A stretch of DNA of 44,605 nucleotides from Shigella phage DS8: sequence record MK759854. One strand, written 5' to 3'. The position numbers were made by a program, and so were the translations under genes. Below the pieces are notes generated by a model, which saw only the letters and a program-made list of their open reading frames with translations, did not search any database and had not been told where the DNA came from. Positions 19,613 through 43,914 of the stretch are shown here, piece by piece (the stretch's first letter is position 1; every line of letters starts with the position of its first letter).

Positions 19613-20689
19613 CTATGGCATGTCAGGCCAATAAGAGTTGCTTTTAGATCTGTTCTCACTTGGTGCAAGTAATTGCAAGTTATGCCAGCAGTGAAGACCA
19701 CAAACCAATTTGCTATTTATTGGCACTATGTGATCAACCTGCATACCAAGAACGCCAGCCATCTCATAAACCTTTTCAATTAAAACCCTTTCATGTTCAA
19801 ACCATGATGGTATCGCCCGTCTTTTAAGATACTTATATTTACGCTGATGATATCTAACAACACCCTTGTTTTTCTGTCTCCACTGCTTTGACTTCTCGCT
19901 ATGCTTTTCCTTGTTTTTATCGTAATAACGTTTTGATTTTTCATTTATCTCTGCCTTTTTTAATTTATAAATATTTTTCCTGAACTCAGCCTGACATTTT
20001 TTGCAATCAGGACGTAGTCCATCAAGAGATGATTTATTTTTATTAAAGTTTTCTTCGTTCGCCTCAAGAACAGATTTACACTTAGAGCAAATCTTCAATC
20101 CATTACCAAGGTATCTTGCTCTCTTCCCTTTATTACCAGAGCACTTCTTGCATATGGAACTAAAGCCAAGTTTCATACTTTTATCTGCATAAAAGTATTC
20201 GCTTGTAGCTGGAAGAACGGACCTGCATTTTGAGCACATTTTCTCATTTAAAACTTCAGTTGAAATCCTGAGGTTGCATATCCTGTTGTCAGCGCGATTT
20301 TTGTTTATGTGCTCAATTTTCGCATTCCCAATATTATCTCCATTAACATAAATCCATGCGAGTCTTTGCGCCCAATATTGATTGCCATCTATGCTAATTC
20401 TCAGATAACCACTAACATCAAGACAGCCAGCAATATCTCCTACTTTAACACGAGAACCTGTCTTTATCTTACGCGTGAATATCCAAGTATCTGGGTTGTA
20501 ATCAAGAACCTCCCTTAGCCTCTCCTGTGAAATGTGTGACTTTCTTTTGGTTCCTGCATTTTTTAACCCTGCACTTTCCTGAGCAACATTTTGCTTTTGC
20601 AGTTCCGATAAACTCATTTCCGCAAACCTCGCACTTCTTGACGGTGATAGCCATTTCTTATCCTCTATTGTAACGATTAATTGTTTCAT
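19613..20689 (-). CDS. HNH endonuclease with two HNH-type motifs and internal CxxC repeats
   Basis: IEHINKNRADNRICNLR (HNH_3-like) and C-terminal DHIVPINS...HCWHNLQLLAPSENRSKSN; four K-x-C-x-K-C units between them; N-terminal ~60 aa and true start are uncertain. Confidence 0.65.
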   Translation of the reverse strand: MKQLIVTIEDKKWLSPSRSARFAEMSLSELQKQNVAQESAGLKNAGTKRKSHISQERLREVLDYNPDTWIFTRKIKTGSRVKVGDIAGCLDVSGYLRISIDGNQYWAQRLAWIYVNGDNIGNAKIEHINKNRADNRICNLRISTEVLNEKMCSKCRSVLPATSEYFYADKSMKLGFSSICKKCSGNKGKRARYLGNGLKICSKCKSVLEANEENFNKNKSSLDGLRPDCKKCQAEFRKNIYKLKKAEINEKSKRYYDKNKEKHSEKSKQWRQKNKGVVRYHQRKYKYLKRRAIPSWFEHERVLIEKVYEMAGVLGMQVDHIVPINSKLVCGLHCWHNLQLLAPSENRSKSNSYWPDMP

Positions 20690-21715: not shown

Positions 21716-21718
21716 AAG

Positions 21719-21742
21719 AAACCCTCATATGGAGGGTTTTTT
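21719..21742. terminator. bidirectional rho-independent terminator between convergent genes
   Basis: Hairpin AAACCCTC-ATATG-GAGGGTTT followed by a T-run. Confidence 0.65.
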
Positions 21743-21743
21743 G

Positions 21744-22160
21744 TTATTCCTTGAACTCTGGCGCTTCAGTCCAGAAGGCTACATTTCGCAGAGACTTACC
21801 CGTGTGATTGCACCAGTATATTCCTGAGTCATCATACTTGGCAGTAACCTTGACGCGATCAGCATCAATAATAACAACCTCCTGTCCATATTTAGGGTCG
21901 AAAAGGCGCGCATCCTTCCAGTCAGCAATCTCATTAAGGGAAAGAAGAACATATCCGGGAAGATAAGCGCCGACATCAGCAATGTGAACTATGGTTCTCT
22001 CCGTTCTCTCTCCAGTGTAGTCTCCATTCCACTCATAAAGAATAATCGTGTCTCCAACCTTAAAATCACGATCGTTCTTTCTTAGTTCCGCCTTCTTGTG
22101 TCCGGTAACTACAGGCCAGAAGTGTTCAGGTAAGATTTTTAGTTCGTGTGTTTTGCTCAT
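21744..22160 (-). CDS. DUF3850/ASCH-like domain protein
   Basis: N-terminal HELKILPEHFWPVVTGHKKAELRKNDRDFKVGDTIIL matches the DUF3850 (ASCH-like) pattern as I recall it; ATG 22160 with GAGG RBS. Confidence 0.5.
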   Translation of the reverse strand: MSKTHELKILPEHFWPVVTGHKKAELRKNDRDFKVGDTIILYEWNGDYTGERTERTIVHIADVGAYLPGYVLLSLNEIADWKDARLFDPKYGQEVVIIDADRVKVTAKYDDSGIYWCNHTGKSLRNVAFWTEAPEFKE

Positions 22161-22242
22161 TTCAAACATCCTCATAATACCAATATGCAACGCGAATTAT
22201 TTCAACCAAACCATTCAACATCATACCAATCATCTTCTGGAC

Positions 22243-23796
22243 TCATTTCAACCTCGGATTTATGTGAACAGTATTTCCGATAAATACGCAGTAACCATCC
22301 TCTTCAAGTGATGGCAATACACTTGATCTTAGTCGGTCATAAATTTTAGGTATCCCTTTGAATGGCCTAACATTTTTAAGTGAATCATAAAGCCACTTCA
22401 CCGTTACGCTTGTTTTTCCTTTCTGAGCGGCAGAGCGTAGCTTTTCGGCAACAACATCAAACTCAGATCGTTCACCAGCATACCCATTTGATTCCACAGC
22501 GTCAGTGAACGTTTTTGTCAGTGCGTCATAAACGCTGATAGCGCGACTAATTTCATTTTCACCGATAATCTTTGAACGCTTTCCTCCATCGCACCAGTTT
22601 TCAGCAGCGTGAAATATTGCTGCCAGACGGATTATTTGCTTATCAGCTTTACCCATCGCGCCACGAAGAAGAACGTGGTCCCACTTACCGCCGGGAAGGA
22701 AGTTTTTCTCCCACTGATTTCGTAACAGGCCGATCATTCTTGCTGAGTCATTGTGAAGTGTCAGTTTTGTTTTTTCTGCTGACACAACGTTATGTATAAA
22801 TCTTGCATATTCCGACCTCAAGCTGTCTGGCATTGGCTTGCTTACAGGGCAATCATTAACCATGTCCCAGTGTTCGCGATAGCCAAGCATTGATTGCTCT
22901 CGCAACATCAGGAAACGTTCAGAAAGCCCGTTACCCCTGTCGCCAGCAGCAAGAATGGCATCAATACTTTCATCCTGAGCAATCACGCTTATGTTTCCAA
23001 GCACGTAACCAGATGAAACGCCACGACCAACACGAGCAGAACCAATGAATCCTCCATCCCAGCCCTTCAGGATGACTTCGGCGTTTGCCTTTCCACCTTC
23101 TTTTCCGTAAGAAAGGCCAAGGCAGGTGTTAAGAACGCTGGCCTCGTCACTTATCAGATTAAAAAAACCACCTTCATGAATGGCTTGATGCTGAACAGCC
23201 TCCGGCGTTGCGTCCGTCAGTGGATATGTGATCGTATAAAGCTCCTCCAGCTTCTCCTTTTCGCGAGCAATATCGTCTCCGATTAGTGCCTTTGCATTCT
23301 GGTTGCTGGCCTCCTTGTATGCCTTCATCAACTCTTCAATGCGAAGATTTATTTTTATGATCTGCTTTTCCATCTTTTTGGAAAGGTTGTCATACTCAAT
23401 CTTCACCGGATTCATGTGCATTGAGTTGATAGCGGTTTTCCCTGCTGATGGAGGCTGAGAAGTAACCACGTAAAGAGAAACTGGAAGTTCTGAATGGTAA
23501 TACTCAACGCTAAAGTTTCTCGTCATTGCGCTGGCAACGCACCCAAGTAAATGCATGAACGATGTATTTATTGGGAACTGAACGGCACGAGCTGCAGCGA
23601 TTGCATAACGAGACAGCAAATCAGTCCTGTGCTCACTGGTCAGTTCTGTTTCTGAGTACGTTACATCACGCTCCTTACCTTCCTTGATGTCCAGCCACAT
23701 ATTTGAGCTTGGTGTCATGCCATGATGGAAGGCGACGCGAGCCGGAGATACTTTTAACTCCCTTGCTTCGTTGAAGATGTCTTGAGCTGTAATCAT
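22243..23796 (-). CDS. P-loop NTPase, putative replication initiation/helicase-type protein
   Basis: 517 aa; Walker A-like QPPSAGKT and Walker B-like LISDEAS; GAGGT RBS; function inferred from its place in the replication module. Confidence 0.5.
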   Translation of the reverse strand: MITAQDIFNEARELKVSPARVAFHHGMTPSSNMWLDIKEGKERDVTYSETELTSEHRTDLLSRYAIAAARAVQFPINTSFMHLLGCVASAMTRNFSVEYYHSELPVSLYVVTSQPPSAGKTAINSMHMNPVKIEYDNLSKKMEKQIIKINLRIEELMKAYKEASNQNAKALIGDDIAREKEKLEELYTITYPLTDATPEAVQHQAIHEGGFFNLISDEASVLNTCLGLSYGKEGGKANAEVILKGWDGGFIGSARVGRGVSSGYVLGNISVIAQDESIDAILAAGDRGNGLSERFLMLREQSMLGYREHWDMVNDCPVSKPMPDSLRSEYARFIHNVVSAEKTKLTLHNDSARMIGLLRNQWEKNFLPGGKWDHVLLRGAMGKADKQIIRLAAIFHAAENWCDGGKRSKIIGENEISRAISVYDALTKTFTDAVESNGYAGERSEFDVVAEKLRSAAQKGKTSVTVKWLYDSLKNVRPFKGIPKIYDRLRSSVLPSLEEDGYCVFIGNTVHINPRLK

Positions 23797-24069
23797 TTAT
23801 ACCTCGTACTCTGTTTCAAATTTCTCATGAGGATTCTCTGATAACCATTCCTTGGCTCTCAAAACTGCAGCGTTTGCTTCCTCTGCCGTTTCAAACATAC
23901 CAAGCTCATATCTTTTCTTGAGTACCATCACTCTCGCTCTGAATTTTTTCGATGCCTTGTGGTAATCAACACCGTAGTATCCAGTGGTTGATTTTGATGA
24001 TGCAACCCACCCTGCACCACGACCATGTTTGTTTAATTTGCGCTTTAATAATACACCGTGATTGCTCAT
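23797..24069 (-). CDS. AP2-domain DNA-binding protein
   Basis: 90 aa; YYGVDYHKASKKFRARVMVLKKRYELGMFETAEEA fits an AP2 domain; GGGGAG RBS; first gene of the leftward operon next to the control region. Confidence 0.5.
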   Translation of the reverse strand: MSNHGVLLKRKLNKHGRGAGWVASSKSTTGYYGVDYHKASKKFRARVMVLKKRYELGMFETAEEANAAVLRAKEWLSENPHEKFETEYEV

Positions 24070-24165
24070 TTCCGCTCCCCAATCAACTATTTCCCCAAAA
24101 TACTACCACCTACTCCCCAGCATTGCAACACAACAAAAGCGTCAAAAGGGGTAAATTGGGTTAAC

Positions 24166-24188
24166 GTGGGGCAACCAACCTGCCCCAC
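24166..24188. promoter_or_regulatory. 23-bp palindrome GTGGGGCA-N7-TGCCCCAC (candidate operator/origin element)
   Basis: Perfect 8-bp inverted arms read directly. Confidence 0.5.
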
Positions 24189-24396
24189 GAAGTTTTACTC
24201 TAAGTATATGTAATATAATATAATTATTATTATTTGGGTTAATGGGTAATATTATTATTCATATTATAGATAAAAATTAACATAATATTAACAAATGGAT
24301 TATTTGAATATGTTTATAAGGGGATGGGTATGAAATCTGCCCCTTTTTACCCACGAAAAATAAAAACATTCAAATCAATGATTTACGATGAAAAGC

Positions 24397-24419
24397 GTGG
24401 GGCAACCGACCTGCCCCAC
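24397..24419. promoter_or_regulatory. second copy of GTGGGGCA-N7-TGCCCCAC, followed by extra CCCCACG half-sites
   Basis: Identical arms; additional ACCTGCCCCACG (24421-24432) and TTTACCCCACG (24441-24451). Confidence 0.5.
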
Positions 24420-24474
24420 GACCTGCCCCACGGGCAAAAATTTACCCCACGAGCACGTTTTTAACGCATTACTG

Positions 24475-24503
24475 TTGACGTAGAATCATCGTTGATGTAG
24501 ATT
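24475..24503 (+). promoter_or_regulatory. putative sigma70-type early rightward promoter (TTGACG-N17-TAGATT) built on two motif copies
   Basis: TTGACG 24475-24480, 17-nt spacer, TAGATT 24498-24503; RBS GAGGGTGAAGAG and ATG 24534 downstream. Confidence 0.4.
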
Positions 24504-24533
24504 GAACTCATCGAAACAAACGAGGGTGAAGAG

Positions 24534-24719
24534 ATGAAAGAAGAAAGCACGCACAACATCGACCAGATGAAGTTATTCAGCGATATATGCATGGCATTGT
24601 CACAACAGGTTACAAGCCTGCCTGCTGATATGCGCTCAAATGCAATCATTGATGCGGCAAACATGATTTGCGAGGCATATGCGATGACTGAAAATGAATA
24701 TAAGGCTTCGAAGAAATGA
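24534..24719 (+). CDS. hypothetical early protein
   Basis: 61-aa ORF with strong RBS; first rightward early gene. Confidence 0.4.
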   Translation: MKEESTHNIDQMKLFSDICMALSQQVTSLPADMRSNAIIDAANMICEAYAMTENEYKASKK

Positions 24720-24899
24720 CAGGCGCAACATTAGAACTTATCTCCAGTCTGGTTATCGTGGCATTCATCATTATCGCAGTGGCAGTTTCTAAATCAGGGT
24801 ATAAGGAGTAACAAAATGAGAAACTTGCATAACGAACACATCATGCAGTGGTATCGTTGTCGCATTAAGGCAATCATTAACTCTTGTGAGGTTTAACAA

Positions 24900-25082
24900 A
24901 TGGCAAAGACCATCTATCGCCGCGAGAAGCTGGAGTCGGAACTCGGTCGCGTTGGCGCGCAGAACTTTATGAGCAAGCAGGCACGCAATGCAATGGAATC
25001 TATCCGCGTAAATCGCGTTGTGCGCGTGTTTAATGGTGAAGGTAAGCGTAGAGTAATGGATGAGCTGATTATCGTATTCTGA
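24900..25082 (+). CDS. hypothetical early protein
   Basis: 60-aa ORF; GAGG RBS 8 nt upstream. Confidence 0.35.
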   Translation: MAKTIYRREKLESELGRVGAQNFMSKQARNAMESIRVNRVVRVFNGEGKRRVMDELIIVF

Positions 25083-42454: not shown

Positions 42455-42624
42455 CACTTCACCTTAATCATGTGTTGTTTTGCAACCTTCAGGCATTCTT
42501 CAAAAATGCCACCCTTCTTTGCGCTCTGATTGCGCTTGTAATACTGGATTGCCACATCAATTGCCATCTGGTCGATATCTGGCAGCTTAGCGCGCAGTTG
42601 CTTGACGAGAAAATCATAAACGTT
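42454..42624 (-). CDS. small protein (56 aa), hypothetical
   Basis: Hand-found ORF, GTG start with GGAG RBS 6 nt upstream; TGATG-coupled to the DnaN-like gene. Confidence 0.3.
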   Translation of the reverse strand, partial: NVYDFLVKQLRAKLPDIDQMAIDVAIQYYKRNQSAKKGGIFEECLKVAKQHMIKVK

Positions 42625-43105
42625 CACTTTTTACTCCGTGATTCTCGTGATATCCAGTTGAAGTTTCAGCTTTTTCTCTGGCTGATATTGCATCTTCTTT
42701 ATTGGCAAAAAAACCAATATGCATCTTTGATACATAAGCCCTCCATAACCCACTCTTCCTGTCAAAGCTAACGCCAGTTCTTCCTGATTTGTTATTTTTC
42801 TGCCTGCTGAGATTTCTGTGGTTCTCTATATGGCTCACCAGCCTTAAGTTTTCAATGCGGTTATCATCACGAATATGGTTAATGTGATCAATTTGCATCC
42901 CGTCAGGGATTGGTCCATTAAACATCTCCCATATAATTCTGTGAGCCAAGAACTTTTTGTAATCAACGCATATGATTACATATCCTGTATTTGCAATTGT
43001 CCCAGCTAAAGAGCCACTTAGCATTTTTCTTTTTTGGTGCTTCCACCTAAGCGCCCCATTATCATAATGAAAAATATCACCCCAATTTATTTTAGTTGTG
43101 TTCAT
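42614..43105 (-). CDS. HNH homing endonuclease with AP2 DNA-binding domain
   Basis: IDHINHIRDDNRIENLRLVSHIENHRN (HNH) followed by GVSFDRKSGLWRAYVSKMHIGFFANKEDAISAREKA (AP2-like); ATG 43105 with GGAG RBS. Confidence 0.7.
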   Translation of the reverse strand: MNTTKINWGDIFHYDNGALRWKHQKRKMLSGSLAGTIANTGYVIICVDYKKFLAHRIIWEMFNGPIPDGMQIDHINHIRDDNRIENLRLVSHIENHRNLSRQKNNKSGRTGVSFDRKSGLWRAYVSKMHIGFFANKEDAISAREKAETSTGYHENHGVKSERL

Positions 43106-43914
43106 CACATCTTCTCCAGAATTGCCATAACCTCGTGAATATCAGCAACAGGAATCTGGATAAATTCCTCATCCTCAGCCACCACATGGCCAGCAGGTAG
43201 AATCACGTGGTCTGCTGGCTTCAGTAACTCAATCAGGCGGTCCACTGGCTTAATCTTTTTCGACTTCAGCACCTTTGCTGTGACCTTTTCTTTGCCTTGC
43301 GCCTTCGCTTCTTCTACTGCCTCGTCGATAACTTTAACCGCATCATCGCCATGCTCACGCGTTACCGCTACGGCATTTGCATAGCTGATTTGCCCTGCAC
43401 TGATGCGCGCTTTTACTTCTGCTGGCACATCACCAAGCGACAGATGCATTTGCACGTCAGATACTGAACGACCTACCTTTTTGGCGATTTCTTCATTCGT
43501 CCAGCCAAAGCCTTTCAGTCTCGTGTAAGCCTTTGCACGCTCAAACGGGTCGAGCTGCTTACCCTGGCTGGATGACACCATGAAGGCGATTTTGTCTGCT
43601 TCGTCTCCAGTGAAGTCCTTACACTCAATGCGAACGATTGGTGCGCCGCGCTCAATGGCACGCAGTGCACCGAGATAGCGATGCTGACCATCAAGAATGC
43701 GGATTCCCTTCTCGTCTGGAATAACTGTTAATGCTGGCAATGGCTGACCTGATTCCCAGCACTGCGCGAAATATTCAACGTGCTGCTCGTCTGCTTCGCG
43801 GATGTTGTATCCCGGCTCCAGATAGATTTGCTCAACTGGCACTAGATAGGTTTTGTTAACAGCGATACCGTTGCGCGTTTCTTTGTCTGAATAGATTTTG
43901 CTGAGTGTTTTCAT
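43105..43914 (-). CDS. ParB-like nuclease-domain (ParB/Srx fold) protein
   Basis: IRILDGQHRYLGALRAI matches the ParB N-terminal domain core; ATG 43914 (alternative GTG 43926). Confidence 0.6.
   Translation of the reverse strand: MKTLSKIYSDKETRNGIAVNKTYLVPVEQIYLEPGYNIREADEQHVEYFAQCWESGQPLPALTVIPDEKGIRILDGQHRYLGALRAIERGAPIVRIECKDFTGDEADKIAFMVSSSQGKQLDPFERAKAYTRLKGFGWTNEEIAKKVGRSVSDVQMHLSLGDVPAEVKARISAGQISYANAVAVTREHGDDAVKVIDEAVEEAKAQGKEKVTAKVLKSKKIKPVDRLIELLKPADHVILPAGHVVAEDEEFIQIPVADIHEVMAILEKM

Follow-up and report, generated by a model that had tools for sequence, protein, structure and literature searches.

The DNA of Shigella phage DS8 analyzed here (sequence record MK759854; 44,605 nucleotides, called the window below) encodes on its minus strand, at positions 23797-24069, a protein of 90 amino acids which resembles an AP2 domain and whose gene lies between a helicase gene and a palindromic non-coding region. 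The locus raises the question of what an AP2-like protein standing alone does at this place. An earlier note had considered it a candidate sequence-specific regulator or origin-binding protein and had linked it to the neighboring GTGGGGCA/TGCCCCAC palindromes.

According to the list of open reading frames, the gene occupies exactly these positions (90 codons and the stop) and begins with ATG, the Shine-Dalgarno sequence GGGGAG being located 5 nt 5' of the start codon. Its stop codon TAA is directly followed by the ATG of a gene for a 517-aa protein (22243-23796, minus strand), which matches DUF3987 (1.3e-34) and PHROG 2373, “DNA helicase”, and whose ribosome-binding site (RBS), GAGG, lies inside the final AP2 codons (E-Y-E-V). 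The last gene in this direction (21744-22190, minus strand) was assigned by Pfam and PHROG to a DUF3850/ASCH protein, and the hairpin scan identified a bidirectional intrinsic-terminator-like hairpin at 21716-21742, opposite to the end of the primase gene, which closes the unit; the terminator search found no terminator within the leftward unit before this hairpin. The three genes form one leftward unit, composed of a putative promoter, AP2, helicase, DUF3850 and terminator, with AP2 as the first cistron, and a 464-bp intergenic region upstream of AP2 sets the leftward genes apart from the small early genes that run rightward. The earlier description of the gene as heading a leftward unit beside the palindromic region agrees with the promoter geometry conserved among relatives (see below), the stop codon abutting the helicase ATG and the terminator at 21716-21742. 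The hairpin itself, located between the convergent DUF3850 and primase genes, is perfect (AAACCCTCCATATGAGGGTTT) and has T runs on both strands. Neither the AP2 protein nor the helicase nor the first rightward ORF has a family in NCBIfam, and the Rfam scan of 23600-24800 yielded a single, meaningless snoRNA match at E=0.1 and no sign of structured RNA.

When the single sequence was compared with Pfam, AP2 (PF00847) was found at residues 29-72 with E=6.7e-4 and 20.4 bits, which does not reach the gathering score of 33.3. PHROG families of HNH-AP2 proteins match residues 22-85 at up to 1.7e-13, while the family of the 90-aa protein itself, PHROG 35306, is listed in PHROG with unknown function. 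A family profile built from eight orthologue clusters and searched against a representative protein library matched 6214 proteins, 259 of them at E<=1e-10, and the strongest matches were multi-AP2 and HNH-AP2 proteins. Seven of eight sampled matches pass Pfam AP2 at 1e-11 to 1e-30, the eighth (P0138) failing with 26.2 bits, and two of the eight also match HNH_3, one above the cut-off; at the profile level, the 90-aa protein is homologous to AP2 proteins that satisfy the curated threshold. The profile search suggested by the earlier note to confirm the AP2 fold has thus given a positive answer.

The structural data point the same way. The AF2 model (mean pLDDT 66; core 75-86) contains strands at residues 35-37, 42-49 and 52-59 and a helix at 62-78, that is, a three-stranded antiparallel sheet packed on a C-terminal helix, as in the AP2 fold. 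Foldseek against PDB placed the AP2 domains of WRI1 and TEM1 first, with probability 0.96-1.0 and weak E-values of about 0.1, and among viral proteins the best matches were AP2 and HNH-AP2 proteins. When the family profile was compared with PDB sequences, the only meaningful matches were the AP2 domains of WRI1 and ERF096, with YxGV, FRARV and LGxFxTAEEA aligned; in this alignment most of the canonical DNA-contacting residues of ERF (Arg/Trp) appear replaced in the 90-aa protein. Given the PHROG matches, the family profile, the AF2 model and the Foldseek matches, the assignment of the AP2 fold is sound, and a stand-alone AP2 fold makes it very probable that the protein binds DNA. The earlier wording that the protein is almost entirely an AP2-like domain was right about the similarity and overstated its extent: the AP2 core covers approximately residues 29-79, about 55% of the protein, and is preceded by a basic arm (residues 1-28; six K/R and no D/E), predicted to be disordered, and followed by an acidic tail of 11 residues (80-90).

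Phage AP2 domains had been said to reside mostly on HNH endonucleases, and this holds for the relatives of the protein. About 22 of the 215 phage records matched by tblastn carry a stand-alone orthologue, whereas 193 matched with less than 60% identity and, among the matches listed, these were for the most part the AP2 segments of proteins annotated as HNH or homing endonucleases. In the 90-aa protein no HNH match was found by Pfam, and no HNH remnant flanks the gene, which is bounded by the promoter and the helicase ATG. The window contains two HNH_3 endonuclease genes on the minus strand, one for 358 aa inside the replication gene block (19613-20689) and one for 164 aa (42614-43108), the C-terminus of the latter being the only, and weak, AP2 match elsewhere in the window (E=0.004 with the family profile). 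Since this is the sole other AP2-like stretch and the match is weak, origin of the AP2 gene by recent duplication within the window was rejected.

The window shares about 95% identity with Escherichia phage EcoIv28_Lewi and with Salmonella phages IME207, Vi II-E1 and Akira, which are siphoviruses of some 45-48 kb. In Lewi the 90-aa protein is unchanged (100% identity), and in IME207, Akira and Vi II-E1 its identity is about 98-99% (97.8% in Vi II-E1). The value falls to 81-84% in a group of Klebsiella phages and to 61-62% in ZX4, BUCT610 and the records of pYD38-A and pIS4-A, deposited as phages of Vibrio and Aeromonas, respectively. Some orthologues already bear the AP2 label: Akira gp01 is noted as “AP2 domain, DNA binding domain”, and R9TRZ8 of pYD38-A is named “AP2/ERF domain-containing protein” in UniProt. 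As annotation, the finding is already in the public record; what is added here is the evidence against the link to the palindromes, the cassette polymorphism and the promoter G-tract repeats. The Vi II-E1 orthologue VIP0049 (locus L001, 4535-4807) is labelled a pseudogene, yet it is an intact 90-codon ORF in the correct frame, and the label appears to be wrong; the idea, based on this label, that the gene is dispensable was dropped because the ORF is intact.

Across 22 phage records and metagenomic contigs, the protein is 82-90 aa long and the start codon and RBS are conserved, and in 14 of the 14 phage or metagenomic loci examined the gene stands directly in front of the DUF3987 gene. This synteny is invariable in phages of Salmonella, Escherichia and Klebsiella and in the records deposited as Vibrio and Aeromonas phages. 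Between AP2 alleles, dN/dS is 0.05-0.14, with approximately 0.10 non-synonymous differences per site and saturated synonymous sites (pS 0.65-0.95). The gene is under strong purifying selection and is functional, and it very probably encodes an AP2-fold DNA binder heading the helicase operon. In the phages examined the slot in front of the helicase is never empty, but it may hold alternative genes, which are considered below.

The intergenic region consists of two arrays of iterons around an AT-rich core. The left array (24148-24189) contains direct repeats GGGGTAA (24148), GGGTTAA (24158) and GGGGCAA (24168) at 10-nt spacing and an inverted TGCCCCACG (24181-24189), which completes the left palindrome at 24165-24189; the layout of three direct copies and one inverted copy was found both in phages with AP2 and in those without it. 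The right array (24396-24451) comprises the palindrome CGTGGGGCA-N7-TGCCCCACG (24396-24420), another TGCCCCACG at 24424-24432 and a degenerate TTACCCCACG at 24442-24451. The palindromes beside the AP2 gene, reported in the earlier note, are real and non-random, as CGTGGGGCA occurs in the 44.6-kb window in five exact copies, every one of them within 24165-24432. The arrays enclose the lowest-GC stretch of the window (24195-24330), a probable DNA-unwinding element kept in relatives, with GC of 13% over 100 nt compared to 26% in the next-lowest stretch, and the global minimum of the cumulative G-C skew of the window is at 24134. To the right, the consensus scan found a promoter-like site TTGACG-17-TAGATT on the plus strand (24475-24503), which is the portion of the region shared by the broadest set of relatives. 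This architecture suggests that an iteron origin and divergent early promoters are combined here. In addition, each of the two palindromes scores as a terminator-like hairpin directed into the AT-rich core. A literature search found no experimental work on the origin-like region at 24148-24451.

A similar layout of iterons, AT-rich core and adjacent helicase gene is known from SaPI Rep/ori and P4 alpha/ori, where two sets of iterons flank an AT-rich core next to the helicase gene and the helicase-initiator itself (SaPI Rep, P4 alpha) reads the iterons. It is more likely that the helicase would read the iterons here too, in which case no definite part at the origin would be left for the AP2 protein.

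Natural replacements of the gene bear directly on this point. In 25 phage records, including Bas78/79, C1, S192, HC6, STGO-35-1, AB4P2, ZCKP8 and KpV2811, the slot corresponding to 23797-24069 is filled by a gene for an unrelated protein of 72-78 aa, which we call type B (4055-4273 in L002, gene Bas79_0080; 4055-4273 in L008; 4554-4790 in L010). The 72/78-aa protein has no match in Pfam or PHROG. Its AF2 model is confident (pLDDT 80) and shows a small alpha/beta fold, for which Foldseek against PDB gave only generic alpha/beta matches (E>=0.06), and hhalign of the type B profile with gp68 of 64795_sal3 gave E=0.002 but a probability of 14%. No recognizable DNA-binding fold was detected by Pfam, PHROG or AF2 with Foldseek against PDB, and therefore the slot does not obviously demand a regulator.

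Within a clade, the helicases of AP2 and type B phages are 99-100% identical, the succession of iterons, AT-rich region and iterons is kept in both groups, and the left palindrome CGTGGGGAACATCACCTTCCCC is identical in the AP2 contig L015 and the type B phage Bas79. Therefore the palindromes do not need the AP2 protein, and the link between the two drawn in the earlier note is not borne out. If the palindromes function without AP2, they are more likely read by a protein that all these phages share, for which the DUF3987 helicase is the obvious candidate. Neither did AP2 alleles and left-iteron sequences show clean co-variation, as would be expected of a protein that sets origin specificity; the iterons are heterogeneous within every phage.

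The boundaries of the replaced segment were visible in pairs of close relatives. The window and Bas79 share an identity of at least 92% over most of the region compared; the exception runs from approximately -130 to +273 relative to the AP2 ATG, corresponding to 23797 to approximately 24200, and comprises the left iteron array, the promoter and the gene. Similarly, KlebP_265 and ZX4 are 95-100% identical outside approximately -160 to +150, and the stretch in which they diverge takes in the left array, the promoter and codons 1-50, which encode the beta sheet. AP2 domains contact DNA through the beta sheet. In the comparison of KlebP_265 with S13e, pS is 0.95 in the AP2 gene and 0.28 in the helicase gene. 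An exchangeable cassette of approximately 400 bp (left iterons, promoter and AP2 gene) recombines independently of the helicase, while the right iteron array lies outside the cassette and is unchanged by its exchange. The breakpoints and the contrast in pS thus show that several old alleles are shuffled among otherwise closely related phages.

More distant relatives, Bas80 (L021, 2478-3070) and 64795_sal3 (L022, 2564-3080), share with the window only the rightward promoter (24459-24540 of the window). They have iterons around AT-rich cores of their own (TTTACCGG in Bas80 and GGATAA in 64795_sal3), different helicase-sized proteins without Pfam matches, and other small first genes. The locus thus seems to be a place where phages exchange entire replication modules.

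The part of the cassette in which a target of the AP2 protein may be sought is the promoter of its own operon, here called PL. In the orientation of the gene, the sequence of the 60 nt before the start codon is TTGCAA-TGCTGGGGAGTAGGTGG-TAGTAT-TTTGGGGAAATAGTTGATTGGGGAGCGGAA-ATG, with a putative -35 hexamer TTGCAA (24123-24128, minus strand) and a putative -10 hexamer TAGTAT (24100-24105, minus strand) preceded by TGn (extended -10). Because it scores 8/12 against the promoter consensus and the threshold of the scan was 9/12, PL is missing from the output of that scan; its geometry (-35, 17-nt spacer and TGn-extended -10; 24128-24100), however, recurs in all AP2 alleles.

A motif census found three copies of TGGGGA on the minus strand at PL: in the spacer next to the -35 (24114-24119), immediately after the -10, where transcription is expected to start (24092-24097), and overlapping the Shine-Dalgarno sequence GGGGAG of the AP2 gene (24076-24081). 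These are three of only six copies in 89 kb (both strands of the 44.6-kb window), and they fall within 45 nt; for T[GA]GGGA[AG], three of five copies in the window, both strands counted, are at PL. The first two copies bracket the -10 at a distance of 22 nt, and this spacing is kept in alleles A1-A3, where the copies read T(G/A)GGGA, despite the saturated synonymous sites. In the ZX4 and P0005 alleles, which have a different beta sheet, GGG(G/T)(A/T)A repeats approximately 11 nt apart lie between -35 and -10, whereas the type B promoter has no G tracts and contains TTGAATCAT twice instead. The promoter of the AP2 gene is thus overlapped by a repeated motif specific to the cassette, as in operons of autoregulators. 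AP2 domains are reported to favour GC-rich DNA, according to a passage of PMC10448857 that cites Magnani et al. 2004.

We propose, tentatively, that the AP2 protein autoregulates the helicase operon at PL. A small AP2-fold DNA binder standing alone, with a basic N-terminal arm and an acidic tail, would be made from PL and would bind the T(G/A)GGGA direct repeats bracketing the -10 and the transcription start of its own promoter, and this binding would adjust the expression of the helicase operon. It would not be the protein that defines the GGGGCA iterons and the palindromes; these would more likely be read by a protein present in all these phages, with the DUF3987 helicase as the candidate. 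The clustering of the motif, its conserved spacing, the cassette-specific G tracts and the preference for GC-rich DNA together favour this reading without proving it. We infer that the protein binds DNA, which site it recognizes and in which direction it regulates, and the compact unit is probably early. Against autoregulation at PL it may be said that one of the three TGGGGA copies is the Shine-Dalgarno sequence itself, and the G-rich promoter spacers could have another cause. The low consensus score of PL, the replacement of most ERF contact residues and the failure to recognize a DNA-binding fold in the type B protein count against it as well. Of the two roles suggested in the earlier note, that of a regulator is plausible, with its site at the gene's own promoter instead of 24150-24460, while origin binding is weakened by the natural swaps. 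As the iteron core TGGGG(C/T)A resembles the TGGGGA motif of PL, some binding of AP2 at the iterons is possible.

In alleles with a divergent sequence, the N-terminal arm contains an AT-hook-like core, FRGRPS in P0005 (L016, 2001-2249) and GGRPS in ZX4 (L005, 3001-3258), and A/T runs lie on either side of the G-tract repeats at the promoters. An AT-hook-like arm and A/T-flanked G tracts could mean combined recognition of the minor and the major groove.

Other explanations of the gene differ in where they place its target, or deny it a function. A decaying remnant of an HNH-AP2 homing endonuclease would have its precedents in the degenerate AP2 fragments described in Xanthomonas phages (PMC2248197) and in gp115/gp116 of ICP1, which are AP2-only fragments of homing endonuclease genes (PMC10448857), and the pseudogene label in the Vi II-E1 record would fit. 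It is nevertheless extremely improbable: the Vi II-E1 copy is intact, the region between the promoter and the helicase gene leaves no space for an HNH remnant, and the purifying selection, seen with synonymous sites saturated, together with the conserved length, start, RBS and synteny rules out a decaying fragment. Sporadic presence with decay, the pattern of homing genes, was not observed; the synteny is fixed, the ORFs are intact and dN/dS is low. A function at the origin, in which AP2 would bind the GGGGCA iterons or palindromes and help to recruit or load the DUF3987 helicase, also seems unlikely, although the position of the gene, adjacent to the helicase gene with apparent translational coupling, speaks for it, as do the iteron arrays flanking the lowest-GC stretch, the skew minimum at 24134, the TGGGG shared by the iteron core and the PL motif, the travelling of the left array with the cassette and the GC-rich preference mentioned in the quoted passage of PMC10448857. 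It conflicts with the occurrence of 99-100% identical helicases and the same iteron architecture where an unrelated protein replaces AP2, with the left palindrome shared by L015 and Bas79, and with the constancy of the right array outside the cassette.

A further explanation places the target outside the locus. The protein would then have a host-directed or inter-phage role, for instance occupying the sites of HNH-AP2 homing endonucleases of co-infecting phages, or some other part in early takeover, and its gene would stand where it does for no other reason than to be expressed early from a hot spot of recombination. We consider this somewhat doubtful. Several old alleles and an unrelated alternative at a hot spot of exchange are typical of accessory or conflict genes, the difference in pS between the AP2 and helicase genes of KlebP_265 and S13e fits such a history, the nearest relatives of the protein are homing-endonuclease DNA-binding modules, and nuclease genes and their derivatives mark boundaries of phage exchange (PMC10448857). 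However, this reading points to no definite target and leaves unexplained why G-tract repeats specific to the cassette occur at PL, and the HNH_3 genes of the window itself are only distantly related to the AP2 protein. A more elaborate scheme treats the cassette (left iteron array, PL and the codons of the AP2 beta sheet) as a co-evolving specificity module: AP2 alleles would read differing G tracts at the promoter and the left iterons and would tie the transcription of the helicase operon to the firing of the origin, and the old alleles and the unrelated type B analogue would be kept by selection against cross-talk at co-infection. We regard it as quite improbable.

Compared with known systems, the closest relatives in sequence and fold are the phage HNH-AP2 (HNH_3) homing endonucleases (for instance PHROG 99, 3593 and 953; T5, Tls and KP15 types), with whose C-terminal DNA-binding domains the AP2 core (YxGV strand, FRARV strand and LGxFxTAEEA helix) aligns. 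In contrast to them, the 90-aa protein has no HNH domain and shows fixed synteny and purifying selection, whereas homing genes insert sporadically and decay. The plant AP2/ERF domains (WRI1, 7wq5; TEM1, 7et5; ERF096, 5wx9) have the same fold and are the best matches of solved structure by both profile and Foldseek, but the similarity is weak (E of about 0.1), most of the base-contacting Arg/Trp residues are replaced and the biological context is different. Other short stand-alone AP2 proteins of phages include R9TRZ8 and Akira gp01, both from the family of the 90-aa protein, the “putative transcription factor” of Sf12 (64 aa), and proteins of 57-66 aa in Si3, phT4A and HdK5; all have a single AP2 domain and no catalytic domain and were annotated from sequence alone. 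The family of the 90-aa protein differs by the basic N-terminal arm, the conserved acidic tail and the linkage to the DUF3987 helicase. We know of no characterized member among the stand-alone phage AP2 proteins or the AP2 regulators predicted in anti-CRISPR loci. Predictions of AP2-domain proteins as regulators in such loci have been published (PMC10732046, PMC12658196).

Autoregulation at PL would have its nearest functional parallel in Cro-like and Aca-type autoregulators, which likewise are small DNA-binding proteins encoded in an operon whose promoter is overlapped by repeats; the cassette of the window, as these operons, carries both the regulator candidate and its presumed sites. The difference is that Cro-like and Aca-type proteins are helix-turn-helix dimers acting on inverted repeats, while the 90-aa protein has an AP2 fold and its candidate sites, recognized from the sequence, are direct repeats.

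As it stands, the gene encodes an already annotated domain protein, and short stand-alone AP2 proteins are common in phages. If the proposed autoregulation is true, it would be among the first functional assignments for the many such proteins. For plant AP2/ERF proteins, the proposed route of origin is a homing-endonuclease DNA-binding module becoming a transcription factor, and the phage protein would be a case of the same conversion in a bacterial virus. The natural swaps between AP2 and type B cassettes (IME207 or Akira versus Bas78/79) offer ready isogenic material on the first gene of the helicase operon.

Two further observations concern the rightward side and the AT-rich core. A 60-aa DUF7540 protein (1.3e-31) is encoded at 24900-25082 on the plus strand. 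In each of four related metagenomic loci (L015, L016, L019 and L020) a DUF7540 gene is likewise called among the first genes to the right, which makes it a conserved early gene. The Akira record starts (end of L003), and the ZCKP8 (end of L010), ZC2 and ZCKp20p genomes begin or end, in the AT-rich core at differing positions, which look like assembly or linearization breakpoints in low-complexity DNA and not like true termini.
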